A DNA stretch of 32,000 bases from Anaerolineales bacterium (GTDB taxonomy: Bacteria; Chloroflexota; Anaerolineae; CG2-30-64-16), in contig JADGQF010000006.1 of NCBI GenBank assembly GCA_017882045.1, forward strand, positions 13,887 through 45,886, given 5' to 3'. The notes under the pieces were generated by a model. It was not told where the DNA came from. It saw nothing but the letters and a program-made list of their open reading frames with translations, and searched no databases. The translations under genes and the position numbers were made by a program. Below are positions 3,239 to 32,000 of this stretch, piece after piece (position 1 is the first letter of the stretch; every line of letters begins with the position of its first letter).

Positions 3239-3886
3239 TTAGCGGCGGGTCACGCGATGCGCGAGCCAATCGCCCAGCCCGGACAGATCCTCGGTGGGCA
3301 AGTAGTGCCCGGCATGCGCGTCAAAGAGGATGCGCGCCCGGGCCGGGAACTCTTCGTCCCCTTCCCAGAGCAGGACGGCCAGCTCCAGGCGGGGGAGGGC
3401 CTGGAAACGGAAACTGGCATCGGCCAGGTCAAGGGGTTGGCCGCCCAGGGCGGCCGCAGCCGCGCGGAACGCAGCCAGGTCCTGGCCATAACGCTGGGCG
3501 AGCACTGCCTCTTCATGGCCGGCGAACGCCTGAGCATAGAAAAGACCGTCCGGCAGCTCACGGAAGGTCACCCAGCGGTCGGCGGCGGGTGTGCCATCGG
3601 CAGTCAGCAAGTAATGAATGAGCGCGATCGCCACCGATGGATGGGCTGGTTTAGCGGCCGCCAACGCAGCGCTCATATCGGCGGGCGTGTCCGGGCCGAG
3701 AAAGAGCACATCACCCGCCGGGTGGGTGACCAGGTGCCAGGCGCGGAAAAAAGGCAAGACGATGCCCTGCGGGCTGAGCACGCAACCGGACAGCCCGGCG
3801 GACAGCCCAGGGTCGGCGGCCGCCCAGTCAGCGCGGGCACGTTCAAGAGCGATCTGGAAGCGACGGTGTGGATCGGGTTGGGTCAT
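3239..3886 (-). CDS. Hypothetical protein (tentatively DUF3786-like; family assignment unverified)
   Basis: 215-aa ORF with protein-like composition, ATG at 3886 and no obvious SD. The N-terminal pattern (ALERARADWAAADPGLSAGLSGCVL...IVLPFF...HLVTHPAGDV) resembles, from memory only, a family often found beside corrinoid/acetyl-CoA pathway genes. Confidence 0.6.
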   Translation of the reverse strand: MTQPDPHRRFQIALERARADWAAADPGLSAGLSGCVLSPQGIVLPFFRAWHLVTHPAGDVLFLGPDTPADMSAALAAAKPAHPSVAIALIHYLLTADGTPAADRWVTFRELPDGLFYAQAFAGHEEAVLAQRYGQDLAAFRAAAAALGGQPLDLADASFRFQALPRLELAVLLWEGDEEFPARARILFDAHAGHYLPTEDLSGLGDWLAHRVTRR

Positions 3887-10724: not shown

Positions 10725-12089
10725 TCAATCGGCCGGGGGTTGCTCGATGAACCCCTGTTCCATCATCGCCTCGGTGATATGCCGGGAACGGTGGATCATG
10801 TCGGCGGCATGGCGGTACAACTCGTCGGCCGATAACGCCAGCCCGGCGATCCCCTGCTCCTGCGCCTTCATCCCCACCGCCACCGCCTCCCGGGCGAACA
10901 CTTCCCATTCGGTCATCACCGGCAGGATGCATTGCGGGTCCAGACCCCTGTCCGGCGCCGAGCCCGCCAGCGCTTCCGCCGCCGCGATGCACATCTCGTC
11001 CGTGATCGTCTTGGCCCGCACGTCCAACGTCCCACGGAAGATCCCCGGGAAACCCAGCGAGTTGTTCACCTGGTTCGGAAAGTCAGACCGCCCCGTTGCC
11101 ACGATCGCCGCCCCGGCCGCCTCCGCTTCCCACGGCCAGATCTCCGGCACCGGGTTGGCGCAGGCGAACACGATCGCATCGTGCGCCATCGCGCTCACCC
11201 ACTCCGGCTTGATCGTCCCAGGCCCCGGCCGGCTGCAGGCCATGCACACATCCGCCCCCACCAGGGCTTCCGCAATCCCACCCTGCCGCCCCTCGGCGTT
11301 CGTGATCTCGCACAGCCGCCACTTGTCCACGTACTCCGCCCGCCGCTGGTAGATGTCCTCCCGTCCCCGCCCCAGGATCCCCTTCGAATCCACCATCAGC
11401 GCCTTCGCCGGGTCCACCCCCGCCTTGAAGCACAGCCGGCTGATCGCCACGTTCGCGGCCCCCGACCCGATGAACACCATCCGCACCTCGTTCACGGGCT
11501 TGCCTACGATCTTCAACGCATTCAGCAGCCCCGCCACCGTCACGCACGCCGTCCCCTGCTGGTCGTCGTGCCAGATCGGGATCTCCGCCTTCTCCCGCAA
11601 CGTGTCCAGCACCCGAAAACACTTCGGCTGCGAGATGTCCTCCAGGTTCACACCCCCGAACCCCGGCTGCAACATCAGCACCGTGTGGATGATCTCATCC
11701 GGATCCTTCGTGTCGAGCATCAGCGGCACCGCATCCACCCCACCCAGGTACTTGAACAGCAGCGCCTTCCCCTCCATCACCGGTAGCCCGGCCTTCGGCC
11801 CAATGTCCCCCAAACCGAGCACCCGTGTCCCGTCCGAGACCACCGCCACCGTGTTCCACTTGCTCGTGTGCTCGTACACCAGCGCCGGGTCCCGCTGGAT
11901 CGCCCGGCACGACGCCGCCACCCCGGGCGTGTACCAGATCGCAAAATCGTCCACCGAGCGGATCGCGACCTTGATCCCCGTCTCGATCTTGCCCCGGTAG
12001 AACGGGTGCAGCTTCATCGCATCCGCTGACGGCTTCTGCGCTTTGGCCAGACGGGTTTCAATGTCAGGTTGCGTCTTGGGAATGTTCAT
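10725..12089 (-). CDS. NAD(P)-dependent malic enzyme (short, MaeB N-domain type)
   Basis: LHPFYRGKIE, WYTPGVA, VAVVSDGTRVLGLGDIGP, EDISQPKCF, FIGSGAANVA. I prefer ATG at 12089 (GGAG 7 nt upstream) over the ORF-track start at 12134. Confidence 0.9.
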   Translation of the reverse strand: MNIPKTQPDIETRLAKAQKPSADAMKLHPFYRGKIETGIKVAIRSVDDFAIWYTPGVAASCRAIQRDPALVYEHTSKWNTVAVVSDGTRVLGLGDIGPKAGLPVMEGKALLFKYLGGVDAVPLMLDTKDPDEIIHTVLMLQPGFGGVNLEDISQPKCFRVLDTLREKAEIPIWHDDQQGTACVTVAGLLNALKIVGKPVNEVRMVFIGSGAANVAISRLCFKAGVDPAKALMVDSKGILGRGREDIYQRRAEYVDKWRLCEITNAEGRQGGIAEALVGADVCMACSRPGPGTIKPEWVSAMAHDAIVFACANPVPEIWPWEAEAAGAAIVATGRSDFPNQVNNSLGFPGIFRGTLDVRAKTITDEMCIAAAEALAGSAPDRGLDPQCILPVMTEWEVFAREAVAVGMKAQEQGIAGLALSADELYRHAADMIHRSRHITEAMMEQGFIEQPPAD

Positions 12090-12148
12090 GCCACATCTCC
12101 TTTTCGGTTTTGTGGGCGGCAGCGGTTTTCGCAAAACCAGAAGAGATC

Positions 12149-13926: not shown

Positions 13927-14502
13927 TTAGAATTCATCGGCAGAACGCTTTAGGTAATTAACGAGCATGATCATGTCCAACGTGTCTCCGTCAGGGGTCA
14001 TGAACATGTCTTTGAGCGCTGCCACCCGTTCGAAACCCACATCTTCAAAGGCGTGGATCACCTGGGGCTGGTTCTCGACGATTTCGGCAATAAGCTGGCG
14101 CAGTCCCACGCGGCGGGCGATCTCAATCTGCGATTTGAGCATGGCCTTGCCGATACCGCAGCGCCGAAACTCTTTGGCGAGGAAAATGCGGATCTCGGAC
14201 ACATGCCGGGTATAGTTCTGGCCCAGGTGCAGCGTCGAGTTGCCGACGATGCGATCGCCGACCACCGCGACTAAGGGGAAGATGCGCGTGTAGTCCACGT
14301 TCTCCGCCCAGGCGGCCACGAGGGCTGGGTTGGCCACCGCGCTGCGGAAGTACGAAATCTCCTCCGCGGGCAGGGTGGTGAACAGGGCCACGAGGGCATC
14401 CCGGTCTTTTGGTATGAGCGGCCGGAGCAGTACACGCATCCCGTTCTGCAAAGTGATCAGGCGGCGATAAAGGGCCAGTTGCTCGGCGGTCTCCACAGCC
14501 AT
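13927..14502 (-). CDS. GNAT-family N-acetyltransferase
   Basis: Acetyl-CoA-binding motif RRCGIGKAM followed by AFEDVGFERV. I prefer ATG at 14502 (AGGAGGAAG 6 nt upstream, directly after the RACo stop) over the ORF-track start at 14538. Confidence 0.85.
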   Translation of the reverse strand: MAVETAEQLALYRRLITLQNGMRVLLRPLIPKDRDALVALFTTLPAEEISYFRSAVANPALVAAWAENVDYTRIFPLVAVVGDRIVGNSTLHLGQNYTRHVSEIRIFLAKEFRRCGIGKAMLKSQIEIARRVGLRQLIAEIVENQPQVIHAFEDVGFERVAALKDMFMTPDGDTLDMIMLVNYLKRSADEF

Positions 14503-14512
14503 ATTCTTCCTC

Positions 14513-16462
14513 CTATGTACCAGCAGCCTGCAGCGCATCAGCGCGCGCGGCCAGCGTTGCCTCCACCGACGGGAAACGGCTCATGTCGGTGTGAGGCAGG
14601 AACAGGGCAGAGGTGAAGGCATCGTAAAAGCTATTGTCTGCCGAGAGCTCGAGATAAGTCATCTTGCCGACAATATCGGTCAGGCGCGCACGCGCGTCGC
14701 GGCGCAACAGGGCCATGTAAGCACCGCGGATGGCGGTGTTACCCATGAAGTGGAAGCGATCCCAAGGGGATGCGCTGCCGGGCGGGGCCGGCAAGTCGGG
14801 CAGCAGGCCAATTTGCACCGCCTTCTCAACGTTGATATACTGGCCAAAGGAGCCGCCGATCAACATCTGTGAGACATCGGCGAGATCCACGCCCACACTC
14901 TGGGCCATCATGTTGAACCCGGCGTAGATGGCGGCCTTGGCCCGCATCAGGTTGTCGATATCAATCTTCGATAGCACGATGTCACGGCCATGCGCACTTT
15001 CCTCACCCCAGGCCACGACGTATTCCGGGCCATGCGCGCCCTCGCGCACTCGGCGGCGGCCATCCGGCCCCGGGGGGAGATCCAGGTTCAGGTTACCGCG
15101 CTTGTCCATCACACCGGTGATGAACAACTCGGCCAGCAACGAAAGCAGGCCGGAACCGCAGATGCCGCGCGGCCGCTCGCCCAGGCGCCCGATAACGCGA
15201 TAGGTCGGCTCGCCGTCGCCGGAATTGACCCATACCTCTTCGATCGCGCCGGTGGTAGCGCGCATGCCGTGCTCGACACCCGCGCCCTCGAAGGCAGGAC
15301 CCGCGGAGCAGGCACAGGTAATCAGCCAGTCGTGCGTGCCTAGGACGGTCTCGCCGTTGGTGCCGATATCGATGAACAGCGTCAGGTCTTCCGCCTCGTC
15401 CATCTGTGTGCTCAACACACCGGCGCTGATGTCGGCGCCCACGTAGCTGGCGACGCCGGGCAGGCAATCCACCACCGCCTGTGGGTGCGCGACCAGGCCC
15501 AGGTCCGCGGCGGTCAGCACCGGCGCCTGGTTGACGGCCGGCACGTAGGGCGCCAGGCGGATTGCCTCGGGCGGGATGGCGAGCAACAGGTGAATCATCG
15601 TGGTGTTGCCGGCAATGGCGACCTTAAAGACCTGATCAGGCGCTGTGCCTGCCTGGGTGCAGGCAGCCTCGAGCAGCCGATTGATCGTGCCGACGACCAA
15701 GGCCTGCATCTCAGCCAGGTTGTTACCCTTGCCGGCATAGATGATGCGCGAGATGACGTCCTCGCCGCGCACGATCTGACCGTTGTAATCAGCCGCCTGG
15801 CCCGCTACCTCTCCACGGAGCAGATCCACCACCCAGACGGTGACGGTAGTCGTGCCGATATCGACAGCCGCGCCGTAACTGCAATCAGATTGGTCCCCGG
15901 GCAACAGGGCCAGCAGTCGGGCCGGGCCCTGCGGGTAGTCCCAACTATCGAGGGACACGATTGCGGTCACGTGCCAGTCGGCGTCGCGCAAGGTCCGGCC
16001 AATGCCTTGCAGTACGGGCAGAGCGGCCGAGATTTCTTGCACACCTTCGCCCGCGAGGGCGCGAGAGATGCGCGACCAATCGTCGGTCTGGTCGGCCAGG
16101 CTGGGTGAGTCGAGCCAGAGGAAATAACGCCGCACCGACTGGTGTCGGGCGACGTCGTAATCAAAGGGAAGCTCGATTCGCCGGGCCGCCTTCTGCGTGA
16201 CGAGCCGGCGTTCGATCGTCTCCTGCTCAGGGACCTCAACCCAGGCATCGCCCTCGATCACGGTCTGGCAGGCCAGGGCATAGCCGGCAGCCACATCCTC
16301 CTTGGACAGGCGCAAGGTAGAGCGGCGCCGGATAGCGCTACGCGCGTCGTCGATCCGGACAGCACATCGGCCACAGCGACCCTGTCCACCGCAAGGCTGG
16401 TTCAGAGAGAAGCCGGCCTGCAGTGCAGCATCGGCCAACAGGCTCCCGCTGGGGACCTGCAC
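14513..16462 (-). CDS. Reductive activator of the corrinoid/Fe-S protein (RACo-type: [2Fe-2S] ferredoxin + ASKHA ATPase)
   Basis: N-terminal plant-type ferredoxin motif CGGQGRCGRC...ALACQT. ASKHA phosphate motifs DIGTTTVTVWVV and FIDIGTNGETVLG. The true start is probably further upstream (see the finding on 16463-16519). Confidence 0.88.
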   Translation of the reverse strand: MQVPSGSLLADAALQAGFSLNQPCGGQGRCGRCAVRIDDARSAIRRRSTLRLSKEDVAAGYALACQTVIEGDAWVEVPEQETIERRLVTQKAARRIELPFDYDVARHQSVRRYFLWLDSPSLADQTDDWSRISRALAGEGVQEISAALPVLQGIGRTLRDADWHVTAIVSLDSWDYPQGPARLLALLPGDQSDCSYGAAVDIGTTTVTVWVVDLLRGEVAGQAADYNGQIVRGEDVISRIIYAGKGNNLAEMQALVVGTINRLLEAACTQAGTAPDQVFKVAIAGNTTMIHLLLAIPPEAIRLAPYVPAVNQAPVLTAADLGLVAHPQAVVDCLPGVASYVGADISAGVLSTQMDEAEDLTLFIDIGTNGETVLGTHDWLITCACSAGPAFEGAGVEHGMRATTGAIEEVWVNSGDGEPTYRVIGRLGERPRGICGSGLLSLLAELFITGVMDKRGNLNLDLPPGPDGRRRVREGAHGPEYVVAWGEESAHGRDIVLSKIDIDNLMRAKAAIYAGFNMMAQSVGVDLADVSQMLIGGSFGQYINVEKAVQIGLLPDLPAPPGSASPWDRFHFMGNTAIRGAYMALLRRDARARLTDIVGKMTYLELSADNSFYDAFTSALFLPHTDMSRFPSVEATLAARADALQAAGT

Positions 16463-22935: not shown

Positions 22936-25218
22936 TCAGAAGATCGGATCCATCATCAGCGCCGGGTGGCCGCTTCCCTCGAGGAAGGCCACCAACTCCA
23001 TCGGATCGGTGCAGACCGTCTCGTCGGCGATCTTGCTGATCAGATCGGGGTCGCCCTCGCGCTCGGCCACGGTCTGGAGCTCGGCAGCCATCGTCTGCTT
23101 GAGGATGCTCGACATCCAGACCACGCGTTTGAAGCCGCCGTCACCCGAGATGAATTTGGGGCTGGTCAGATAGTATTTGCCCACGCCCATCACGCCCTCG
23201 GTCTGCAGACCGCCGCCGGCCATGCCGGCCAGGGTGCTGAAGGTCATGCCGGCGGGCGTCATGCTCGGGTCCTCGCGGCTGACCACCATCACGCCGTTGG
23301 CCTCGGGCACCAGCATGACGATGCACTCGAAGCAGCCGCAGGCCGTCATCGGTTTGGTCATGATCGAATACATGGCCACTTCTTGCACCGAGCCCTGCGA
23401 GTTCTTGACTGCGATCTCATTGAGACCGGTGTAGAAGCCCTTGACGGGATCGAGAACAGCTCCCTTGCGTACAGGCTGGTTGGGCCCGGTCGGGTTGATC
23501 TCGTAGCTCGCCTTGCAGTCCAACCAGTTATAGGCGCCGCACAGCCCCAGGCGCTGCGGGCTGACCAGGCAGACATGGGTAGGCGCGAAGCTCTGGCACA
23601 AGGTACAGGTGTAGAACTCTTCCACCGTCTCGTCCGTCAGGTTGGCCAGGCGCCGGTTGCGGAAGTCGTACGCCGCGCGGGCCTTCTCCAACCACTCCGC
23701 CACCAGGGCCGGGTCGGTGAAGATCGTGACCTGCACCTTGTCCACAATCGCGCCAAAGTCGGCGTGCAAGCGGGCGTGGACGATATCGCCGAAGTGGCGC
23801 AGATTGAAACCCTTGCCGTAGGCGGCCTGGCTGATGCGGATCCAGGCGATGTCGCGCTGGCCGATGTGCTGGATACCACTGGCGCCGTTCACGAAGTAGT
23901 GGATCTGACGCTCGAGCACCGGCTCGAAGTCGGTCTGCATCTTGCGGCCGGCAACCTTAATCACGATGCCCAGGTCCATGGCGCCACCAACGGCCATGCT
24001 CTCGATCGGCGGGCCGATGACCTCGATCTTGCCGTCCTCGACCTTATCCATGTCCACCATGCGCAGGTATTCGAAAGCCCGGCTGTACTTGCCGCCGAAC
24101 TCGACGCGCATGTCCTTCTTCCGCACCACTTCGCCCTCAAAGGCCGAGCCGTAGGGCACGGGGATGGGCACTTCCGTCATCTTGATCTTGACGCCGCGCA
24201 CCTCGATCGCCCGCTGAACCAGCTTGGCCGCCTTCTCCTCTTCCGTGGCGGCCCCGATCTCGTTCCAGGGCATGGAGATGACATGCTCGTAGCGGGTGAC
24301 ACCGCTGGGCAGAATTTGCGGGATGACGGTATCGGCAATCGTTGGAAAACCGTAGGAGATAGCGCCCGCGGCAGCCGCGTACTTCAGGTCGTCCACCTCG
24401 CCGAGGGCGAGGACGAAGGCGAAAACGCGAAACTTGTTGTAAAGCAGGATATCCCGCCACTGCCCGCCCTTCATGCCGCCGAAGGTGAGGGCGGAACGAG
24501 TGGCGAAACCAAGGGCGTAGATGGCGGAGATCGTATCCCGGCCGAAGGGCACGATGAAGGTATCGTAGCCCATTTCGACCCCTTCCTCGCGCAACTGGTC
24601 GATGATAGAGCGACCATTAACATTGCCGGAGAGGAAAGTCAGGATGTTGCGGCGTTGAAGCTCGCGCACGATCGCGACGGCGGCCGCGTTTGTACGCGCC
24701 GCGCCGACGATGGCGGCGAAGCCGGGCATGCGTCCGTCAACCAACTGGATACCCCAGGAGCGAAGCTGGATGTCGTCGATCGGCCCGTTCAGGTGACCGC
24801 CGCCGTTTTCGCTCTCGAACTCCGGGCTGGTGAAAGAAGTTCCACCGGCGAGATGGAAACCCGGGTACGGTTCAGGCTGCTGCCCCAGCGTGAAACGGAC
24901 GCCTTCGATGGTCTCCGCCGCCAGCAGCGTCGCCATGCCGCTGTCCAGCGTTTCGCCAAGGTAAGGCACCCACAGGTTGTCGTCGGGCGCCGGGTGCAAA
25001 AGCTTATGGGCGTGCTCCATAACCGGGCGAAGATCGCCCAGCGTCTTCACCTCGTGGCCTAGCATTCCGAAGGCCACCGGCAGATAGTAGGCGGTGTTGG
25101 GGAAGGCCACCGGTGTGCCGGCGCCCCGCTCGGCGATTGTCTTCGCGAGCATAACCTCGGCTTCAGCCACCAGGGCATTCGCCCCGCGGGCGGCGCGTGT
25201 AGCAATATAACGAGACAT
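22936..25218 (-). CDS. acsB: Acetyl-CoA synthase (A-cluster subunit) AcsB
   Basis: 760 aa. A-cluster ligands C-x2-C-x8-C-x9-C (FYTCTLCQSFAPTHVCLVSPQRLGLCGA) and the Ni-binding Cys-Gly-Cys (MTACGCFECIVM). AGGGAGG upstream of ATG 25218. Confidence 0.96.
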   Translation of the reverse strand: MSRYIATRAARGANALVAEAEVMLAKTIAERGAGTPVAFPNTAYYLPVAFGMLGHEVKTLGDLRPVMEHAHKLLHPAPDDNLWVPYLGETLDSGMATLLAAETIEGVRFTLGQQPEPYPGFHLAGGTSFTSPEFESENGGGHLNGPIDDIQLRSWGIQLVDGRMPGFAAIVGAARTNAAAVAIVRELQRRNILTFLSGNVNGRSIIDQLREEGVEMGYDTFIVPFGRDTISAIYALGFATRSALTFGGMKGGQWRDILLYNKFRVFAFVLALGEVDDLKYAAAAGAISYGFPTIADTVIPQILPSGVTRYEHVISMPWNEIGAATEEEKAAKLVQRAIEVRGVKIKMTEVPIPVPYGSAFEGEVVRKKDMRVEFGGKYSRAFEYLRMVDMDKVEDGKIEVIGPPIESMAVGGAMDLGIVIKVAGRKMQTDFEPVLERQIHYFVNGASGIQHIGQRDIAWIRISQAAYGKGFNLRHFGDIVHARLHADFGAIVDKVQVTIFTDPALVAEWLEKARAAYDFRNRRLANLTDETVEEFYTCTLCQSFAPTHVCLVSPQRLGLCGAYNWLDCKASYEINPTGPNQPVRKGAVLDPVKGFYTGLNEIAVKNSQGSVQEVAMYSIMTKPMTACGCFECIVMLVPEANGVMVVSREDPSMTPAGMTFSTLAGMAGGGLQTEGVMGVGKYYLTSPKFISGDGGFKRVVWMSSILKQTMAAELQTVAEREGDPDLISKIADETVCTDPMELVAFLEGSGHPALMMDPIF

Positions 25219-25233
25219 GTGGCTATACCTCCC

Positions 25234-27240
25234 TTATCTGGCCGGGGCCCCGTAGACCGCTTCGATGCGTTCTTCGAGGGGAAGCGCAATCAGTTCCGGC
25301 ATGCGTGCGTCACCGCTCTTGCCCCACTTGCTCGCGTCATATTTCGGCAGATTCAGGGCAGCCCGCTTCTTGTCGATGTGCTGCATGGCGCGGCGCACGA
25401 TCTCCGCGCCCTCGGCGATAAACTCCAGCTTGCCGCCGACCTTCTTCTCCCAGGTCTCGCTCATCAGGCGCAGGATATTCTCGCTGCCCGACACCGGGCC
25501 ATCGGTCCCACCCATAATGACGTAGCAACCTGAGGCAACCGCATAAACCGCGATCGCCAGTGCCTTCTCGCTCATCCATTCAGGCGCGATACCGACCGCG
25601 GGAATGTCGCTGATATCGTTCCCCAGGCCGCCCTCGCTGGCCATCTGGGTCAAGACGGTCAGGATGCGGGAATTATCGACACAGGACCCCATATGCAGCA
25701 CAGGCGGCATGCCGATCGCTTCGCAGACCTCGCGCAGTCCCGGTCCCGCCACTTCCAGCGCAGCCTGGGGCGTCATATAACCCTGCTTGGCACTTGCAAT
25801 GGCGCCGCACCCGGTCTCGACCACCAGCACATCATTCTTGAGGAACTCAGTCACCACGTAGCGGTGAAGCGAGTCATGGGATACGCGCGGGTTGTTGCAG
25901 CCGATGTTGGCCACCACGCCGCGGATTCGGCCTTGCATGATGGCATCGTTCAGCGGGCGGAAGGAAGCCCGGTAGACACCACCCAGGGCATAGTCGATGT
26001 ACTCATGCGAAAAGCCGGGGACGACTGGGCTCTTGATATCGGGAATGAAGGTTTCGCCGCGCATGGCGAAGCGATCGATGGCCACGCGCACGATCTGCTT
26101 GGCCGTCGCCAGCGCGTGGTGCTCGTCGAACTCAATGCGCATCGAGCCGGGGATCGCGGCCTTCGGCGAGGTGCTGATGAGCGCCGTGTGGAAGCGGGCG
26201 GCGACGGGATTGAGGCCTTCCATGATGCACTGCACGTCGACGACCATCGCGTCGACTGCGCCGGTGATCAAGGCCAGTTCCTGCTGCAAGAAATTGCCCG
26301 CCAGCTTGACACCCTGGCGGAGCAATGCCTCGTTCGCGGTGCAACACAGGCCGGCCAGGTTGATGCCTTTGGCGCCTTTGCTCTGGGCATAAGCGATCAA
26401 TTCGGGATCTTGCACCGCGGCGACGATCATCTCCGACAGGGTTGGCTCATGGCCGTGTACGACCAGGTTGACCATGTCCGCTTCCAGCACGCCCAGGTTG
26501 GCTTCCGCCAGCACCGGCGCGGGAGTGCCGAAAAGCACGTCGGTGAGATCGGTGCCGAGCATCGAACCACCCCAACCATCGGCCAGCGCGCAGCGCATGG
26601 CCTGATCGAGGATGTGCTCCGGGTCTTGATCGTTGCCGATGTTGGTGCGATGCATGGTCTCGACCACTTCCCGGTCGATGTTGCGCGGGGCGATGTGATT
26701 CTCTTTCCAGATTTGCTGGCGCTTGGCGGGGGCGCGCTTGAGGTAGGTCAACTCGCCCTGTGGCTTGCCGAACTCGCCCAACGCGGCCAGCGCCACATCC
26801 TTGGCGATCTCGACGGTCGTGCGCCCGTCAGTCTTGATGCCGAGGTAGCCGGCGACCTCTTTGAGCTTGTGGGGATCACGGACGCGAAAATCCGGGGCAT
26901 CGCCTTCAGCAGCCGCAAGCAGAGTGTAGGCCAGGCCGCGCGCGTGGTCGGAGTGGGCTGCGCTACCCGAGGCAACAGATCGGGTAAAGTTGCGGGCAAC
27001 AATGGTATCCGCGGTAGCGCCACAAACGCCGCGCAGTGTATTGCCTACCAGGCGGCAAGGACCGGCGGCGCAGTTCTTGCAGCACAAGCCCTGGGCGCCG
27101 ATATTGCAGGGGATTATGTTGTCCGCTCTGCGGAAGGCGGTGTCGATATCCAGGAAGATCGCGCGATCCAGCATCTGGACTGCAGCCGGGTCCTCGCTGC
27201 TCTCTTGGGCGGTGCGCACTTTCTTTGCCATTTGTGTCAC
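25234..27240 (-). CDS. acsA: Ni-Fe-S carbon monoxide dehydrogenase catalytic subunit AcsA/CooS
   Basis: 668 aa. B/D-cluster region CNIGAQGLCCKNCAAGPCRL and C-cluster motifs VVHGHEP, ETGCGAIA, HMGSCVDNSR. GTG 27240 (3 nt after AGGAG) or ATG 27231. Confidence 0.96.
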   Translation of the reverse strand: MTQMAKKVRTAQESSEDPAAVQMLDRAIFLDIDTAFRRADNIIPCNIGAQGLCCKNCAAGPCRLVGNTLRGVCGATADTIVARNFTRSVASGSAAHSDHARGLAYTLLAAAEGDAPDFRVRDPHKLKEVAGYLGIKTDGRTTVEIAKDVALAALGEFGKPQGELTYLKRAPAKRQQIWKENHIAPRNIDREVVETMHRTNIGNDQDPEHILDQAMRCALADGWGGSMLGTDLTDVLFGTPAPVLAEANLGVLEADMVNLVVHGHEPTLSEMIVAAVQDPELIAYAQSKGAKGINLAGLCCTANEALLRQGVKLAGNFLQQELALITGAVDAMVVDVQCIMEGLNPVAARFHTALISTSPKAAIPGSMRIEFDEHHALATAKQIVRVAIDRFAMRGETFIPDIKSPVVPGFSHEYIDYALGGVYRASFRPLNDAIMQGRIRGVVANIGCNNPRVSHDSLHRYVVTEFLKNDVLVVETGCGAIASAKQGYMTPQAALEVAGPGLREVCEAIGMPPVLHMGSCVDNSRILTVLTQMASEGGLGNDISDIPAVGIAPEWMSEKALAIAVYAVASGCYVIMGGTDGPVSGSENILRLMSETWEKKVGGKLEFIAEGAEIVRRAMQHIDKKRAALNLPKYDASKWGKSGDARMPELIALPLEERIEAVYGAPAR

Positions 27241-27246
27241 TCTCTC

Positions 27247-27582
27247 CTAGTAGCGTCGGAACTCGCCCGACATTTCCACGTCGGCCCGATTGGTCCTGGT
27301 TACCCGTGCACCCAACAGTTCCCACTTGGGATCGCGCATGTGTTCGCCGGGTGCAGTCATCACGGGAATCTGCCCATCCTCGACCGGGTAACCCGCCTGG
27401 TCCAGCGCGAGTTCAAGTGCTGCGCTATTGGTCTTGGCAGGGTCAAATACCACCAGGGCTTGCTTCCAGGCCGAACTGGCGTACACGCTTCCCACGCCAT
27501 CCAGGTGGACCAGCACATCACGCACGTTGAGGACGTGATGATCCGCCCACATACTGGGGATACTCAGTTGCAGCTTTTCCAT
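27247..27582 (-). CDS. Small HMA-fold-like (ferredoxin-like beta-alpha-beta-beta-alpha-beta) protein lacking the CxxC metal site; first gene of the acs string
   Basis: 111 aa from ATG 27582, with the strongest local SD (GGAGGAG, 8-nt spacer). KLQLSIPSMWADHHVLNVRDVLVHLDGVGSVYASSAWKQALVVFDPAKTNSAALELALDQAGYPV matches the heavy-metal-associated pattern LxVxGMxCxxCxxxVxxxLxxxxGVxxxxVxxxxxxxxVxxDxxxxxxxxLxxAIxxAGY. MxCxxC is replaced by MWADHH. The frame stays open upstream to 28026. Confidence 0.65.
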   Translation of the reverse strand: MEKLQLSIPSMWADHHVLNVRDVLVHLDGVGSVYASSAWKQALVVFDPAKTNSAALELALDQAGYPVEDGQIPVMTAPGEHMRDPKWELLGARVTRTNRADVEMSGEFRRY

Positions 27583-28023
27583 TGCTGGCGCTCCTCCCTC
27601 AATCTTGGTATGCGCTTCCGCGCGTCCGTTTCGTGTCAAACTGGCAATCTCGCGCCGGTGCTCGATGTAAAGGATGCAGAAATCGCAGGTGATGTGGACC
27701 GGCGCGCAACAAGTGGGACAGCCGTTGCGCTGCTCCCAACAAGAGGAATCGCTGGCATATACCGGGCAGTCGGCACATTGCGTGCGCCACCCGTCCGCAC
27801 GGCCATTTTTCTCGCCCGACGCGCCCGTTGCAGACACCGCCTGGTTGGCGCGACCGGCCGGGCCAGGGTTCTGGCCGCCGGTCGGACCATCCGGGTATCC
27901 CGCCCTGATCTGCCAGCAAGTTCTCACTGTACGGATCCTTCGCGACCCTGGGTCACGGGTTCTCGACCTGCCATTAAGGTCACGCCGCCTCGGTGCCCGG
28001 CATCGGGGTGCGCTCGAAGGCGG
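27583..28023 (-). promoter_or_regulatory. ~440-nt leader between the terminator and the first strong SD of the acs genes (structured RNA and/or unannotated Cys-rich coding extension)
   Basis: Contains a 14-bp stem with a 2-nt bulge (CGACCGGCGGCCAG-aacc-CTGGCC-cg-GCCGGTCG, 27884->27851) and several smaller hairpins. The same region is in frame with the HMA-like ORF and encodes C-x2-C-x8-C-x6-C-x2-C-C-x6-C-x2-C (27777->27676). Confidence 0.4.
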
Positions 28024-28070
28024 CAAACAAAAAAACGCCTGTCCGTCGCGCGAGACTAAACGGACAGGCG
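28024..28070 (-). terminator. Textbook Rho-independent terminator between the ANTAR regulator gene and the acs genes
   Basis: On the - strand: CGCCTGTCCGT (28070->28060), 13-nt loop, ACGGACAGGCG (28046->28036), then TTTTTTTGTTTG (28035->28024). The 11-bp stem is perfect. Confidence 0.85.
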
Positions 28071-28113
28071 ATCACCACCTGTGCCACCCTCAGGCCCACT
28101 TCAGCCTGAAGGC
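28064..28113 (-). promoter_or_regulatory. Candidate antiterminator or alternative pairings just 5' of the terminator
   Basis: ACAGGTG (28082->28076) can pair with CGCCTGT (28070->28064), which is 7 of the 11 nt in the terminator 5' arm. Upstream, the hairpin GCCTTCAGGC-tgaagtgg-GCCTGAGGGT (28113->28086) has 10 bp including 2 G-U pairs. Confidence 0.35.
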
Positions 28114-28200
28114 TTAGCTTACTTTTAGCACACTAACCGGGCACAAACCATGATCCGCGTCATATATGAGAGGCAAAGCCACGCAGCCAGTGGCTGCAGC

Positions 28201-28779
28201 CTATAGCATCTGGTCGGCCATGATGATCGCCTCGGCCACCTGCGCCAATCGGCGATTGGTGTTTTGGCTCTGGCGCTGCAGGCGCTGAAATGCTTCGTCC
28301 TCGCTCAGATCCAGCCGGCGCATCAGGATACCCTTGGCGCGCTCGATCAACTTGCGTGCCTCCAGCGCTTCGCGCAGGTCGGCGACTTCTCGTCGTAGGG
28401 CCTGGAACTGGCGAAAACGAATCAAGGCCAGGGTGATGGCAGGCAGCAGATCTTCTTCCGAAACCGGCTTCATGAGGTAAGCCGCTATGTTGGCCTGCGC
28501 TGCGCGCTCGACCAACTGCGCCTCGCTATAGGCGGTGAGCAGGATGATGGGGATGGGCCGTGCCTCGGTGATCCGCTGGGCAGCCTCGATACCGTCGGCG
28601 ACCGGCATGCGAATATCGATGATGGCCAGGTCAGGCTGAGTGCTGGCGGCCAGTACCACCGCCTCCTCGCCGTTTGAGGCCTCGGCGACTACGATGTGGC
28701 CCAGCGCGGCCAATTGAGCGCGCAGGCTCAAAAGACGTATGCTCTCATCGTCGGCGATCAAGATGCGCAGGGATTCCAT
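28201..28779 (-). CDS. Response regulator with REC + ANTAR RNA-binding output domain (PdtaR/AmiR-like)
   Basis: 192 aa. REC: ILIADDE, phospho-acceptor region DLAIIDIRMPVADG, YLMKP. ANTAR: LEARKLIERAKGILMRRLDLSEDEAFQRLQRQSQNTNRRLAQVAEAII. ATG lies 5 nt after the kinase stop. Confidence 0.9.
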   Translation of the reverse strand: MESLRILIADDESIRLLSLRAQLAALGHIVVAEASNGEEAVVLAASTQPDLAIIDIRMPVADGIEAAQRITEARPIPIILLTAYSEAQLVERAAQANIAAYLMKPVSEEDLLPAITLALIRFRQFQALRREVADLREALEARKLIERAKGILMRRLDLSEDEAFQRLQRQSQNTNRRLAQVAEAIIMADQML

Positions 28780-28784
28780 GGTAT

Positions 28785-29939
28785 CTACCGATAGAAGGTA
28801 ACTGTAGCACAGCTCCCGGCCGGCAGTCGCTCGAGACGCAACGTGCCGTCCAGGTCTTTCTCGACCAGCGTGCGGACGATCTGCAAACCGAGACCGCTGT
28901 TCTTGGTAAGGTCAAATCCCGGCGGCAAACCATGTCCGCCGTCGACGATGGTCAGCGAGATGCGCGGCCCATCCTGCTGAAGCCCGACCAGGATCAGGCC
29001 GGAGAGCCCGCCGGAGAAGCCGTGCTCCAATGCGTTCGCAATCAGCTCGTTCATGACCAGCGCGAGCGCGGTAGCTTGCTTTGACGGCAGATAGATGGGC
29101 GGCCCGGTCACTTCCGCCTGGACTTCCTGGCCCGGTCGCGTCAGGTGACCCAGCGCGATCTCGCTGACCTGGCGGGCCAGCTCGGTGATGTCGGTCAGCC
29201 GCAATTGCTCGGATGACAGCAACCGGTGCACGGCGGCAATGCTCTTGATGCGGTTGATGCTGTCGTGCAGGCTACGGCGCGCTTCCGGACTGGTGCTGTT
29301 CAGCATTTCAAGGCTGAGAAGATCGGCTACGGTCTGCAGGTTATTCTTGATGCGGTGATGCATCTCCGCGATCACAGCCGATAGAGCCTCGGCTCGACGC
29401 GCCTCCTCACGCAGGCGCATATTTTCCATCGCGAAGCCGATCTGCGCCGCTGCGGATCGCAAGAGCGCTATTTCCGCGGAACTGAGGGTCGTGCCCTGGC
29501 GTGTGACAACATGCAGCACGCCCAACACGCGGTCTTTGGCTAACAGAGGCACCGACGCGCAGCTATGCTGCGTGTAGCGCCGGCAGTCCGGGCGGATGAC
29601 GCGCCGGTCATCGCCAGCATCGACAGCCACCAGGGGTTCGCCGCCGTTCGCGGCCAGGCCGCATAAGCACTCGCCCGGACGGATCGTCGCCTCGTCAGGG
29701 TCCAGGAAGAGAGGATTGCCCGCCGCAGCTACCAGGGCCAATTGCTGCGTCTTGTCGTCAAGCAGATAGATGCGCCCGCTTTCGAGAGCCATCACCTGCA
29801 GGACGCGGCTGAGAGCCTGAGACAGGGCCTGCTCTTCGTCCAACGCCTGGTTCATGGCCGCAGAGACGGCGTACAGGGCCGCCAACTCCTGAGTGCGGCG
29901 CCCTTCCTCCCCCACCTGCGGGTCACCCGCGTCAGGCAA
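28785..29939 (-). CDS. Cytoplasmic GAF-domain sensor histidine kinase (HisKA_2 type, PdtaS-like)
   Basis: 384 aa with no TM segment. GAF region holds 4 Cys (ECLCG, PDCRR, HSCAS). H-box EMHHRIKNNLQTVADLL, N-box LVMNELIANALEHGF, G-boxes DGGHGLP and GLGLQIV. TTG start with GGAGG 4 nt upstream; GTG 29915 is the alternative. Confidence 0.85.
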   Translation of the reverse strand: MPDAGDPQVGEEGRRTQELAALYAVSAAMNQALDEEQALSQALSRVLQVMALESGRIYLLDDKTQQLALVAAAGNPLFLDPDEATIRPGECLCGLAANGGEPLVAVDAGDDRRVIRPDCRRYTQHSCASVPLLAKDRVLGVLHVVTRQGTTLSSAEIALLRSAAAQIGFAMENMRLREEARRAEALSAVIAEMHHRIKNNLQTVADLLSLEMLNSTSPEARRSLHDSINRIKSIAAVHRLLSSEQLRLTDITELARQVSEIALGHLTRPGQEVQAEVTGPPIYLPSKQATALALVMNELIANALEHGFSGGLSGLILVGLQQDGPRISLTIVDGGHGLPPGFDLTKNSGLGLQIVRTLVEKDLDGTLRLERLPAGSCATVTFYR

Positions 29940-29971
29940 GAGCCCTCCATGTGACTGCTAACGAGGCATAA

Positions 29972-30026
29972 CGTAAAACGCAACCATCTGGGAACGCAAC
30001 GCCGTCCCAGAAGCTTGCGTTTTACG
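29972..30026 (-). terminator. Large compound hairpin after tatA (possible terminator or processing element)
   Basis: Outer 12-bp perfect stem CGTAAAACGCAA (29972-29983) / TTGCGTTTTACG (30015-30026), a 4x4 internal loop, and an inner 6-bp stem CTGGGA (29988-29993) / TCCCAG (30005-30010). On the - strand it is followed by TTATGCC (poor U-tract), only ~30 nt before the kinase start. Confidence 0.45.
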
Positions 30027-30056
30027 AATTACGCTATGCGTTTGGCGCTCTGTCTC

Positions 30057-30257
30057 TTACGCGGGCTTTTCCGTGTTCGTGCTATCCGCGCCTTCGGCAG
30101 GGTCAGCCTTCTTCGCTTCATTGCCGCCCGAGTTCTGGCGGAATTCGCGGATACTCTTACCCAGCGCGCCACCGATCTCCGGCAGACGCCCCACGCCGAA
30201 CACAATGAGTACGATCACCAGGATGATGATCAGCTCGGTCGGACCAAGGTTGAACAT
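30057..30257 (-). CDS. tatA: Twin-arginine translocase subunit TatA/E
   Basis: 66 aa. [41 protein letters not shown] is the canonical TM helix, FG hinge and amphipathic helix. GAGGAG upstream of the ATG. Confidence 0.9.
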
Positions 30258-30407
30258 TTCCTAACTCCTCACAGAAAGTATGCCTCAGGCCGCCAAGCGC
30301 CCGGGCAGGTGTGTGAACGCATCCGCGGCCACCGAATTACGACAGCGCCCGTGCGACCGCTCGGATTCGGGCATCACCCCGCTGGCAAGTGTGGGGCAAA
30401 GAGGGGC

Positions 30408-32000
30408 TCAATTTGACGGCGATGCAGGCCGGCGCGGGTCATAACCGCTGCGCAGATTAGCAATCGCCACATCCAGTCCCTGTCCTATCAGCCGGTTCAC
30501 GAACAAGTTCTCGGCCGGCGCGCCATCCGCAAGCCGGCGGGCAGCCTGGCGCGCCAGGACAACCGCCTCGGGTTGGAACGCCAGGGCCAGCCAACAGGCC
30601 ATCCCGGCAAGCCGTCGCTGGTATAGGTTAACCAGCTCAGGCCCAAAGTGCGTTGCAGCCAGCTCCCTCACCTGGGCGCTGCGCGCCGCGAGGGTGTGCC
30701 GGCGGCCGAGCCGCCGGGCCGCGTCATAGAGCTCGGGAGCCTGCCAGAACCACGTCGCAAAGGCGGGATGGTCGAGGAGGCCCGCAGTACAGGCATCAGA
30801 AGCCGCTGCAAGCGGCGAAGCGCCGGGCACTTCGCCGCCCGGCGGCGCCTCCTCGGCTGCTAGCTTCTGCTTTCCTTCTCCGCCGCTCAATTCCTCAACC
30901 GGCACTTCCCAGATCAGCGGGTTTAAGAGCCAGTACTCCATGGGCGGCGCGTGGCCACTGGCCCAGTTGAGCTCCAGGGCCTCACGCACCACCTGCCGTC
31001 CGGCCTCGAAAGGCACCTCGAGCAGAATAATCGGGGGCGCGTCCTCGGCCTGCCTCATCACATATGTCCCACCAAGCGCCTGCACCGGTGGCAACTCCTC
31101 GACAGGCACGTCCAGCGAACCAAAGCTGGCGACAATCCCTCCGGTATCCTTGCAAAGAATGCTGAACAGAACGCCGTGCACGCCGGCGTCAACACTACCG
31201 TCTCCGCCCTCCGCATTGCGAGCGCCGACAAACCAGACCACTTGCGCGCCCGCCCCATCGACGGGTGACAGCAGAGCCCTCCAGTTACCCGGTTGACGGC
31301 TCGGCTGCTCCAGGCGATCGGACACCCCGCTCATGCGTAGTTTGCGCACACTGCGAGCCGCAACGGCGGCTTGCGCCGGAGGCAAGTTCGCGCCCAGGCT
31401 CAACAACGCCTGGACGGCCTCGGGCGAACGAGTACGGCTCAACTGCTCCAGGGCCGCCTGGGCCAACACCTTGTTCTCGCCCTGGGCGAACATCCGCAAG
31501 AGTGTGATGAGATGTGGGCTGGCCGGCTGGTCCGGGATGGCATCGATAACGGTGCGGGCCACATCGGGAGGCTGTTCCGCCAGTTGGTTAAGGTATTCTA
31601 TCACCACAAACTGGTTGCGCCCCATCTCGTGCACCAGCTCGCGCAATGACTGAGCGGCAACTGTATCCGGGTCCTGTAACCCGGCCAGCAAGGCCTCCTC
31701 GACGGGCTGATGAAGAAAACGATCCAGGATCATCAGGGCCGTCAGGCGCGCCTGATCGCTGCGTTCACGGGCACGAGCCGCCCCGCGCAAGGCTGGCACG
31801 ATTTGTTCGGGATCGAGGCGGGCGGCCACATGTCCCAGACCACCCCGCAGTTGAGGATCGGCAGTATCGAGCAGCGAGAGCAAAACTGGGATGGCAGCGC
31901 TGCCGCGCTGAACGATAGCCTCAGCCCGCTCAACCAATTGGTCGAGACTCGTGGTCTCGCTCAGGGCTGCAAACGCAGTCTCGAGTGCCCTGCGCTCCAT
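30408..32000 (-). CDS. Large uncharacterised protein with an N-terminal HEAT/armadillo-like region (start at or beyond the window edge)
   Basis: 530-aa ORF that reaches the last base of the window. N-terminal helical repeats (IPVLLSLLDTADPQLRGGLGHVAARL, VPALRGAARARERSDQARLTALMIL). I recognise no family in the rest. Confidence 0.65.
   Translation of the reverse strand: MERRALETAFAALSETTSLDQLVERAEAIVQRGSAAIPVLLSLLDTADPQLRGGLGHVAARLDPEQIVPALRGAARARERSDQARLTALMILDRFLHQPVEEALLAGLQDPDTVAAQSLRELVHEMGRNQFVVIEYLNQLAEQPPDVARTVIDAIPDQPASPHLITLLRMFAQGENKVLAQAALEQLSRTRSPEAVQALLSLGANLPPAQAAVAARSVRKLRMSGVSDRLEQPSRQPGNWRALLSPVDGAGAQVVWFVGARNAEGGDGSVDAGVHGVLFSILCKDTGGIVASFGSLDVPVEELPPVQALGGTYVMRQAEDAPPIILLEVPFEAGRQVVREALELNWASGHAPPMEYWLLNPLIWEVPVEELSGGEGKQKLAAEEAPPGGEVPGASPLAAASDACTAGLLDHPAFATWFWQAPELYDAARRLGRRHTLAARSAQVRELAATHFGPELVNLYQRRLAGMACWLALAFQPEAVVLARQAARRLADGAPAENLFVNRLIGQGLDVAIANLRSGYDPRRPASPSN

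Follow-up and report, generated by a model that had tools for sequence, protein, structure and literature searches.

The window, by which we mean the whole 32,000-nucleotide stretch of DNA from an Anaerolineales bacterium analysed here, carries a two-component kinase/regulator pair of antiterminator type and, next on the same strand, the CODH/ACS genes, with an intrinsic terminator between them. This arrangement raises the question of whether the terminator does no more than close the kinase/regulator operon, or whether it controls entry into the acs operon that follows, as an earlier note on this DNA had proposed. Regulated attenuation at this position is very likely, and the conserved leader at the start of the acs operon points to regulated transcription read-through as a control on the carbonyl branch of the Wood-Ljungdahl pathway. 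Our full reading is that positions 28163-28024 of the minus strand hold the promoter and 5' leader of an operon of a Cys-rich/HMA gene, acsA and acsB, that this leader is a transcription attenuator, and that the adjacent REC-ANTAR protein is the most likely factor to act on it; as a whole we judge this reading to be evenly poised between right and wrong. To our knowledge, how the carbonyl branch is regulated is little understood except in a few acetogens, where the known regulation involves DNA-binding regulators. In the literature searched, we found no papers linking antitermination or ANTAR proteins to CODH/ACS, or describing this motif, in agreement with the earlier note, which knew of no such control.

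The upstream pair had been recognised correctly. Pfam identifies GAF_2 (8e-20), HisKA_2 (6e-16) and HATPase_c (8e-10) domains in the kinase (28785-29939, minus strand), and Response_reg (9e-25) and ANTAR (5e-23) domains in the regulator (28201-28779, minus strand). The kinase is PdtaS-like, has 384 residues and is predicted to be cytoplasmic, as its GAF domain (residues 32-172) begins at residue 32 and leaves no room for a membrane anchor. A PAS domain is absent from this protein, while PAS domains are present in the precomputed Pfam lists of some homologues of about 590 residues, and some of the 977 kinase homologues are annotated as PdtaS by JGI. The four cysteines noted previously in the GAF domain (C91, C93, C119 and C127) are invariant across 20 orthologues. 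The regulator is of the PdtaR/EutV type, and its closest solved structures are 1s8n, a putative antiterminator of M. tuberculosis which we take to be Rv1626/PdtaR (E 5e-45, full length), and 6wsh, a response regulator that is presumably EutV (E 5e-40). The site that the alignment maps to EutV Met172 is Met in PdtaR and EutV and Gln in this regulator; an acs-specific change at this site was considered and rejected, because Gln is found in all Chloroflexota orthologues, those without acs included.

The terminator (28024-28070, minus strand) lies 130 nt past the TAG stop of the regulator, on the same strand, and its description in the earlier note is borne out by the sequence, the alignment and the minimum free energy fold. 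CGCCTGTCCGT (28070-28060) and ACGGACAGGCG (28046-28036) form a perfect 11-bp stem with a 13-nt loop, followed by the T-tract TTTTTTTGTTTG (28035-28024), of the form T7-G-T3-G. A terminator scan overlooked this element because its loop limit was 8 nt. The hairpin previously seen upstream of the antiterminator is present as hairpin 1 (P1; 28086-28113, minus strand), with 11 bp in the minimum free energy fold; in the alignment its conserved core spans 28109-28090, with the loop GAAGUG at 28102-28097 and invariant closing pairs U.G and C-G. Downstream of it, ACAGGTG (28082-28076) pairs with CGCCTGT (28070-28064) over 7 bp, including one G.U, to give hairpin 2 (P2, the putative antiterminator; 28064-28082, minus strand), which reads ACAGGUG / GUGAU / CGCCUGU. 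The 3' arm of hairpin 2 doubles as the opening 7 nt of the terminator 5' arm, so that the two structures are mutually exclusive; this pairing had been proposed before and proves to be conserved across leaders. The 186-nt region has a folding z of -4.86, and none of 200 shuffles was equally stable. In all six lineages folded, the nascent RNA is predicted to form hairpins 1 and 2 and the full-length RNA hairpin 1 and the terminator, the terminator being thermodynamically dominant by 2-15 kcal/mol over hairpin 2.

Two features were missed in the earlier note: a conserved promoter between the regulator stop and hairpin 1, and a first gene twice as long as supposed. The position of the promoter implies that the element is a 5' leader transcribed from a start of its own. 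A conserved palindrome, ATGACGCGGATCAT (TGA-N6-TCA; 28150-28163, minus strand), is a candidate CRP/FNR-type activator site, and is followed by an extended -10-like element, TGCTAAAAG (28122-28130, minus strand), recognised by its spacing to the palindrome, whose hexamer in the window starts exactly 22 nt past the palindrome. The palindrome aligns in six of six kinase-derived loci, and a box at the same position, 57-69 nt upstream of hairpin 1, occurs in 25 of the 30 leaders examined. The exact 22-nt spacing is kept in 17 of these 25 boxed leaders, counting the L171/L200 duplicate twice, and the best hexamer lies one base further in the other eight. With this spacing the palindrome centre would fall at -41.5, the class II CRP/FNR geometry, and transcription is predicted to start near 28115. 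In a sister clade, the interval from the regulator stop to hairpin 1 instead contains TTGACA-N18-TGGTATGAT. A promoter scan of 27000-30500 found no sigma-70-like site, a result that is uninformative for an activator-dependent promoter. The palindrome-dependent promoter would add a second layer of control on the acs operon.

The gene order given in the earlier note stands, with an HMA-like ORF followed by acsA (Ni-CODH; 25234-27240, minus strand; Prismane, 4e-160) and acsB (acetyl-CoA synthase; 22936-25218, minus strand; CODH_A_N, CdhC and ACS_CODH_B_C), and the extent given there for the first gene does not. The source assembly likewise annotates just the last 111 residues, as an ORF from 27582. 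Codon-pattern conservation indicates a longer gene (27247-27927, minus strand), whose 226-residue product joins a Cys-rich domain at the N terminus to an HMA-like domain; the gene starts at GTG 27927 and has the ribosome-binding site AAGGA at 27939-27935. The Cys-rich domain is conserved, and forms a separate ORF in L013; the gene is called as 226 residues in L010, and homologues of 211-236 residues cover 96%. Because the ORF begins at GTG 27927, the supposed 440-nt gap ahead of the first gene shrinks to 96 nt.

The same layout of promoter, hairpin 1, hairpin 2/terminator, Cys-rich/HMA gene and acsA/acsB recurs in about 30 distinct Chloroflexota leaders. Profile searches of genome contigs with the kinase alignment returned many paralogues among the matches listed and at least about ten true orthologous loci that were usable, and about three quarters of the matches listed from a DNA-pattern search of metagenomes were chance matches without T-tract and without acs, discarded by context. 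Every true leader match precedes a Cys/HMA gene and AcsA. Our alignment comprises 28 distinct leaders, of which 10 were obtained without recourse to the DNA pattern. Across it, hairpin 1 and the terminator are 95.9% paired, seven pairs show compensatory changes, and none of 500 shuffles reaches the score; the paired cells amount to 98.9% for hairpin 1 (compensatory changes in three of seven pairs) and 93.8% for the terminator stem (four of ten pairs). Hairpin 2 is 100% pairable and its sequence is invariant, also in the 10 independently found leaders, and for this reason it shows no covariation. RNAalifold predicts hairpins 1 and 2 on the leader alignment. The T-tract is present in nearly all leaders and weak in L013, L112 and L153. 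The kinases of the compared lineages share just about 60% identity while the hairpins stay conserved. These comparisons assign the hairpins and terminator to the acs operon rather than to that of the kinase.

In 10 lineages, only 10-24 nt separate the T-tract from the first start codon, which leaves no room for a promoter between them and makes read-through obligatory; in these lineages the terminator sits 50-60 nt downstream of a promoter. Together with the occurrence of some 30 leaders before acs genes, this supports the earlier proposal that acs expression passes through the terminator. The alternative structures, their conservation and this obligatory passage are demonstrated at the level of sequence comparison and predicted folds, and they narrow the control point to read-through at one terminator.

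A mechanism that would account for these features begins with an RNA start at about 28115, directed by the TGA-N6-TCA palindrome and extended -10 element. The nascent RNA would fold first as hairpins 1 and 2. As the 3' arm of the terminator emerges, it would displace hairpin 2 by virtue of its greater stability, and RNA polymerase would halt at the U-tract (28035-28024). Read-through into acs would then need a factor holding hairpins 1 and 2 in place. The most likely candidate for this factor is the upstream REC-ANTAR regulator, which would be phosphorylated by the 4-Cys GAF kinase, and a regulator dimer would bind the two near-identical hairpin tops, C/G-U[G-N-N-G...]G-G/C. By analogy with PdtaS of M. 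tuberculosis, the signal may be a metal, a gas or redox state. That the adjacent PdtaR-like regulator controls the attenuator is plausible, and we would put our confidence in it at about half.

The leader resembles known ANTAR targets (EutV and the eut leaders of Enterococcus and Listeria, NasR/nasF and AmiR/amiE; PMC3369931, PMC8934654) in having two small tandem hairpins joined by a short linker, the second of which shares its 3' arm with a terminator, in having termination as its default state, in its invariant closing pairs, which are reported to be essential for EutV, and in the REC-ANTAR regulator encoded beside the target. Hairpins 1 and 2 are joined by a linker of 8-14 nt, most often 8 nt (22 of 28 leaders), which falls within the 2-25 nt range of ANTAR targets. 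The loops share with ANTAR targets an A at position 2, a G at position 4 and, in loop 1, never a G at position 3. Loop 1 reads G-A-[A/U/C]-G-N-N (G-A-H-G-N-N) in all 28 leaders, is a hexaloop in 27, and departs from the published loop consensus AAHGRH (Ramesh et al. 2012, PMC3369931) at position 1 only. G4 is present in all 28 leaders in both loops, counting in loop 2 from the U.G closing pair. In contrast to ANTAR targets, this leader has G in place of the canonical A at position 1 of both loops (28 of 28), a U.G closing pair, and a loop 2 of 7 nt, G-N-Y-G-A-W-Y, or 5 nt if a G-Y pair forms, so that there is no pair of hexaloops; it is also GC-rich, with stems that are near-repeats of each other (CAGG..CCUG), and CODH/ACS genes would be new for such control. 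The published ANTAR alignment does contain G1 loops as a minority variant (GAUGAA, GAUGUG and GAAGUA), with GAUGAA found for example at L. monocytogenes eutA (PMC3369931). Searched with a regular expression for canonical dual A..G.. hexaloops, the window gave seven weak matches, taken as chance, and none in the leader, which agrees with the earlier failure to see a canonical target by eye. The covariance search suggested in the earlier note also went against a canonical target: the leader scores -2.7 bits and goes undetected with a model of 29 published targets (R2; Ramesh 2012, Fig. S1/S2), whose best matches in the window (E 0.65-0.9) are elsewhere, in coding sequence. This failure is weak negative evidence, because ANTAR models based on Firmicutes reportedly fail when genomes have a high GC content (PMC8164766).

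The kinase and regulator themselves are most reminiscent of PdtaS/PdtaR of M. tuberculosis (PMC8131098; 1s8n), with which they share a cytoplasmic GAF kinase with HisKA_2, cysteines in the GAF domain and a REC-ANTAR regulator. The kinase here differs in being without PAS and in its cysteine pattern, C-L-C plus two rather than C-V-A-Q-C. The GAF domain of M. tuberculosis PdtaS senses Cu and NO through its cysteines (PMC8131098). Mycobacterial ANTAR-target RNAs are reported to act by translational repression (bioRxiv 10.1101/660928), in contrast to the leader here, in which a terminator is involved.

Synteny between the two-component pair and acs genes in relatives, to which the earlier note had looked for support, is found in part. 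The regulator is linked to the leader in 16 of 26 lineages, or in 16 of 19 counting only those with the regulator found or with at least 5 kb of upstream sequence. It lies no more than 200 nt upstream of the leader in the window, L011, L012, L013, L015, L115, L126 (with the near-identical L140 and L158) and L142, and 0.5-4.4 kb upstream in L017, L112, L128, L136, L153, L166, L198 and L199; within 5-7 kb upstream there is no regulator in L152, L171/L200 and L201.

These lineages with a leader and no nearby regulator bear on the reading that survives best after our own, in which the attenuator is the same and the effector another, either an RNA-binding protein, from another locus or from the operon itself (such as the Cys-rich/HMA or a CBS protein), or a small ligand acting on a new riboswitch, with the ANTAR regulator a bystander. 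We hold this to be a real, if lesser, possibility. The kinase and regulator are conserved where acs is missing (L014, L016, L020, L021, L023 and L027), and in Chloroflexota the pair sits in a conserved block, recR-ybaB-dnaX / HEAT-tatA-HK-RR, so that its place next to acs may reflect inheritance of gene order and not a functional link. The non-canonical loops and the failure of the canonical model are in keeping with another effector, and a ligand pocket, too, would explain why hairpin 2 and the loop purines are strictly invariant. However, a pair of small, nearly identical hairpin tops is better suited to a dimeric protein than to a ligand pocket, the variable loop positions compared by eye showed no loop-loop or loop-linker covariation, and no RNA-binding antiterminator other than the ANTAR regulator was seen nearby. 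Its linkage to acs is moreover kept in L198, where the regulator follows dnaK and its kinase neighbour has been lost. Leaders bound by other proteins (LicT/SacY RAT, PyrR, HutP and TRAP) and riboswitch platforms likewise have alternative hairpins competing for the terminator 5' arm, but this leader is without the evident sequence features of those systems, no such protein is encoded nearby, and no Rfam family matches. A search of 27200-28400 against Rfam 15, with E up to 10, returned only chance-level miRNA matches (E 2.8-6.8). The more specific proposal of a new riboswitch class for CODH/ACS operons, in which the two hairpin tops form a pocket for Ni, CoA/acetyl-CoA or a folate/corrinoid-related metabolite and the ANTAR regulator is merely syntenic, we consider improbable.

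We also think it unlikely that the terminator is unregulated or passively leaky, insulating acs from kinase/regulator read-through and setting a fixed low basal level while control is exerted at the palindrome-dependent promoter or promoters. Such an arrangement would agree with the thermodynamic dominance of the terminator and with the conservation of the promoter, a second copy of which lies downstream of the terminator in eight lineages and would bypass it. However, a plain terminator needs neither a conserved hairpin 1, nor an invariant competing hairpin 2, nor invariant loop residues, and one that is the sole route into acs in 10 lineages would be wasteful if unregulated. The caveat raised in the earlier note, by which the terminator would only close the kinase/regulator operon, with acs served by a promoter of its own between 28023 and 27928, is highly improbable despite the shared strand, the short distance from the regulator stop and the 96-nt spacer of the window lineage, because the element occurs without a regulator upstream, among neighbouring genes on the opposite strand (L200, L201), and is missing after the orthologous regulator of acs-less L014, where fumarase follows, which refutes this as its sole role, and because the promoter lies upstream and not downstream of hairpin 1, the scan found no sigma-70-like site in 27000-30500, and the spacer is unconserved and as short as 10-24 nt.

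With regulated attenuation by the ANTAR protein as the preferred reading, the locus provides a conserved, covarying and Rfam-absent leader RNA before the acs operons of uncultured Anaerolineae-type Chloroflexota, and a candidate sensor in a 4-Cys GAF kinase of PdtaS type. If the ANTAR link is true, ANTAR recognition would extend to G1 loops and to a pair of 6- and 7-nt loops, and the leader would be the first proposed target for the widespread Chloroflexota PdtaS/PdtaR pair. Several other identities for the element were considered and rejected: a conserved leader peptide, since differences in linker length (+1, +2 nt) break any reading frame, and a guanidine-II-like (ACGR loops) or hammerhead (CUGAUGA) RNA, as the loops are unfit and there is no Rfam match. 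Complementarity between loops 1 and 2 of a kissing type, sought by eye on the alignments, was not consistent. Across 1.2 Mb of locus sequence each locus has a single copy of the leader; a covariance model of the leader (R1) found no extra ones there, and weak matches of 13-22 bits look like chance. A generic and uninformative scan of 1.15 Mb of loci for U[GANGNN]G hairpins gave 112 matches against about 45 in shuffles, and only the acs leaders have a second hairpin and a terminator. We note that a recurrent match to this hairpin pattern is the antisense of the coding sequence of regulator paralogues.

The conserved element between the REC-ANTAR regulator gene and the acs genes is, with high confidence, a transcription attenuator for the CODH/ACS operon. 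On re-check, all sequence statements of the earlier note, which had proposed ANTAR-regulated read-through into this operon, were correct. The minus-strand terminator starts 130 nt past the regulator stop, with a stem (28070-28060 / 28046-28036) in which CGCCTGTCCGT pairs with ACGGACAGGCG, a 13-nt loop, and then T7GT3G to 28024; a consensus terminator scan missed it solely because this loop exceeds the scan's 8-nt limit. Part of the 5' arm, CGCCUGU (28070-28064), can also pair with ACAGGUG (28082-28076), forming an antiterminator, hairpin 2, and hairpin 1 (28113-28086, 11 bp, loop GAAGUG) lies immediately 5' of it. The leader region has a folding z of -4.86, with none of 200 shuffles equally stable. 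In an alignment of 26 leaders, hairpin 1 and the terminator are 95.9% paired (31-43% in slid controls), compensatory changes occur at seven pairs, and the covariation score is reached by none of 500 shuffles. Hairpin 2 lacks covariation because its sequence is invariant (CAGGUG...YGCCUG); it is 100% pairable, also in the 10 leaders identified by routes other than the DNA pattern, and the mutually exclusive pairing suggested earlier is upheld. Judged by this invariance, hairpin 2 is under strong sequence constraint. RNAalifold predicted hairpins 1 and 2 independently, the predicted fold of the nascent transcript comprises both in six of six lineages, and in predicted folds of full-length RNA the terminator is favoured by 2-15 kcal/mol. 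The linker carries +1 and +2 nt indels, which exclude a conserved leader peptide. The motif has no Rfam match, and the literature searched held no description of antitermination control of the Wood-Ljungdahl carbonyl branch, in line with the earlier note, which knew of none. A 6-bp hairpin, GCUGCAGCCACUGGCUGC (28183-28200, minus strand), adjoins the regulator stop, lacks a U-tract and is not kept in relatives.

In the window, part of a MAG of an uncultured Chloroflexota of Anaerolineae type, the minus strand reads from a HEAT-repeat gene and tatA through a GAF/HisKA_2/HATPase kinase (28785-29939) and the regulator (28201-28779) into a long Wood-Ljungdahl cluster. This cluster includes a Cys/HMA gene, acsA (25234-27240), acsB (22936-25218), genes for a CBS protein, a ferredoxin-reductase-like protein, RACo, a CooC-type ATPase and a pterin-binding (AcsE-like) methyltransferase, two CdhD-family genes that we read as acsD and acsC, and the folate genes for MetF, MetV and FolD. 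Genes for a DUF3786 protein (3239-3886), a GNAT acetyltransferase (13927-14538) and a malic enzyme (10725-12134) are interspersed among them on the same strand. Three independent routes to related loci (kinase homologues, a metagenome DNA pattern for both hairpins, and Cys/HMA protein homologues) together yielded about 30 distinct leaders, all with the order promoter, hairpin 1, hairpin 2/terminator, Cys/HMA gene, acsA, acsB. A covariance model of hairpins 1 and 2, searched against the window and 1.2 Mb of related loci, found exactly one copy per locus, always in the acs leader. The element is kept in two loci (L200, L201) where the 5' neighbours are encoded on the other strand and the regulator is absent within 5 kb, and it is missing in L014 after an orthologous regulator (84% identity) whose next gene is fumarase. 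Judged by gene order, the element travels with acs.

The earlier note had allowed that the terminator might simply end the kinase/regulator operon. As its sole role, this is refuted by the comparison of loci; with a predicted promoter of their own 5' of hairpin 1, the hairpins and terminator form a 5' leader rather than just a 3' end. The stretch that separates hairpin 1 from the regulator stop holds a conserved palindrome, ATGAC-N4-GTCAT (28163-28150, minus strand; TGA-N6-TCA geometry). A -10-like hexamer, frequently after TGn, starts exactly 22 nt past the palindrome in most lineages (TGCTAAAAG, 28130-28122, in the window); in eight lineages the best hexamer is one base further away. The palindrome centre would fall at -41.5 from a start at about 28115, immediately 5' of hairpin 1, which would correspond to class II CRP/FNR-type promoter geometry. 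A gene of the CRP/FNR family was noticed neither in the window nor in the annotated flanks. At the corresponding place, members of a sister clade (L124, L126, L140, L158) carry a textbook TTGACA-N18-TGGTATGAT.

The first operon gene, previously described as an HMA-like ORF, is twice its annotated length. Third-codon-position variation extends far 5' of ATG 27582 in the intergenic alignment with relatives, and the gene (27247-27927, minus strand) starts at GTG 27927 behind an AAGGA ribosome-binding site and encodes 226 aa, as called in another assembly of identical sequence (L010). Most assemblies mis-annotate it as 111 aa. The protein fuses an N-terminal Cys-rich domain (M-R/K-T-C-W-Q, then CxxC, CW, CPxCC and CxxC), which has no Pfam match, to an HMA-like domain with WADHH in place of the CxxC motif; in L013 the two halves are distinct ORFs. 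Homologues of 211-236 aa (96% coverage) lie upstream of AcsA in every examined locus, and the family, named 'CopZ' by JGI, may be a CODH/ACS metallochaperone. Leader and Cys-rich domain co-occur among the loci compared, as both are missing from L018 and L019, where the HMA gene lacks the Cys-rich domain. In these two loci from more distant Chloroflexota (Caldilineae, Ca. Aquidulcis), acs is no farther than 4-7 kb from the orthologous kinase/regulator. Because the true start is GTG 27927, the supposed 440-nt gap from the T-tract to the first start codon is only 96 nt, and in the window this spacer contains neither a second palindrome nor a sigma-70-like site. In 10 lineages (L199, L200, L112, L115, L116, L136, L149, L152, L171, L174) the start codon is 10-24 nt away from the T-tract, a spacer into which no internal promoter fits, and read-through is obligatory. 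Eight other lineages (L015, L128, L135, L142, L143, L154, L166, L169) have a second palindrome 3' of the terminator, 74-132 nt from the start of the hairpin-1 loop motif and in three tandem copies in L169, mostly followed by TGCAAAAAT, TGCAAAACT or a similar -10-like hexamer; this combination is probably a bypass promoter.

The best single hypothesis for the effector, to which we give about an even chance, is the adjacent PdtaR-like regulator, under control of the four-Cys GAF kinase. Over its full length the regulator is homologous to the 1s8n and 6wsh proteins, which we take to be PdtaR and EutV. Its residue 172 is Gln, aligned in our mapping to EutV Met172, reported to be essential for RNA binding, and the 1s8n protein has Met at this position. 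Among Chloroflexota orthologues, all those with 61% identity or more share Gln172, while Met, Arg or Asn takes its place in the other ANTAR subfamilies of these loci. Gln172 may accompany another preference for the loop. The leader has the same architecture as the ANTAR targets of Ramesh et al. 2012 (PMC3369931) and Walshe et al. 2022 (PMC8934654). Hairpins 1 and 2 are joined by a short linker of almost constant length (8 nt in 22 of 28 leaders), and their tops nearly repeat each other, CAGG(C)U[G..G..]G(G)CCUG, a pattern that would suit a dimer. Loop 1 is G-A-[A4/U22/C2]-G-N-N in all 28; the consensus of published targets is AAHGRH/AAHGDV, with G1 variants GAUGAA, GAUGUG, GAAGUA and GAUGAU, whereas the leader differs in its universal G1 and its 7-nt loop 2. 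The canonical ANTAR target that the earlier note could not find by eye was also absent from the leader in a pattern scan of the window, but an ANTAR-like dual-hairpin architecture is present. A model from 29 published ANTAR targets scores the leader at -2.7 bits, which is weak evidence against membership because Firmicute-based models reportedly fail in high-GC genomes (PMC8164766).

The four GAF cysteines pointed out earlier (91, 93, 119 and 127; GECLCG...GCR...CA) are present and do not vary among 20 orthologues (58-93% identity), some of them unlinked to acs. Cu and NO inhibit M. tuberculosis PdtaS via its GAF cysteines (PMC8131098), and by analogy the signal to the kinase could be redox, metal or gas. 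JGI annotates some kinase orthologues as 'methionine-R-sulfoxide reductase with GAF domain'. The regulator lies at most 200 nt 5' of the leader in the window, L011, L012, L013, L015, L115, L126 (and the near-identical L140 and L158) and L142, and 0.5-4.4 kb 5', with small genes inserted, in L017, L112, L128, L136, L153, L166, L198 and L199. In L198 (241-2726) it comes directly after grpE-dnaK, with a start that overlaps the stop of dnaK, and has no adjacent kinase, yet is still 5' of acs; small genes of toxin-antitoxin-like type lie between it and the leader there. Ten lineages showed no regulator in the 1.1-7.1 kb of 5' sequence covered, a stretch of at least 5 kb in three of them (L152, L171/L200, L201). 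Synteny with acs, proposed earlier as a check on the pair, is frequent for the regulator, but the pair also occurs without acs (L014, L016, L020, L021, L023, L027) and the leader without a nearby regulator. The main rival, that another protein or a ligand is the effector, we regard as possible and distinctly less probable than the regulator. The kinase/regulator pair belongs to a conserved block, recR-ybaB-dnaX / HEAT-tatA-HK-RR, and as this is widespread without acs, the linkage may partly reflect inherited gene order. The recR-ybaB-dnaX genes are on one strand and those for the HEAT-repeat protein, tatA, kinase and regulator on the other, an arrangement kept across Anaerolineae-type genomes with and without acs (L001-L017, L199). 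An identical regulator is found on 23 contigs examined, GCA_036726245.1 among them.
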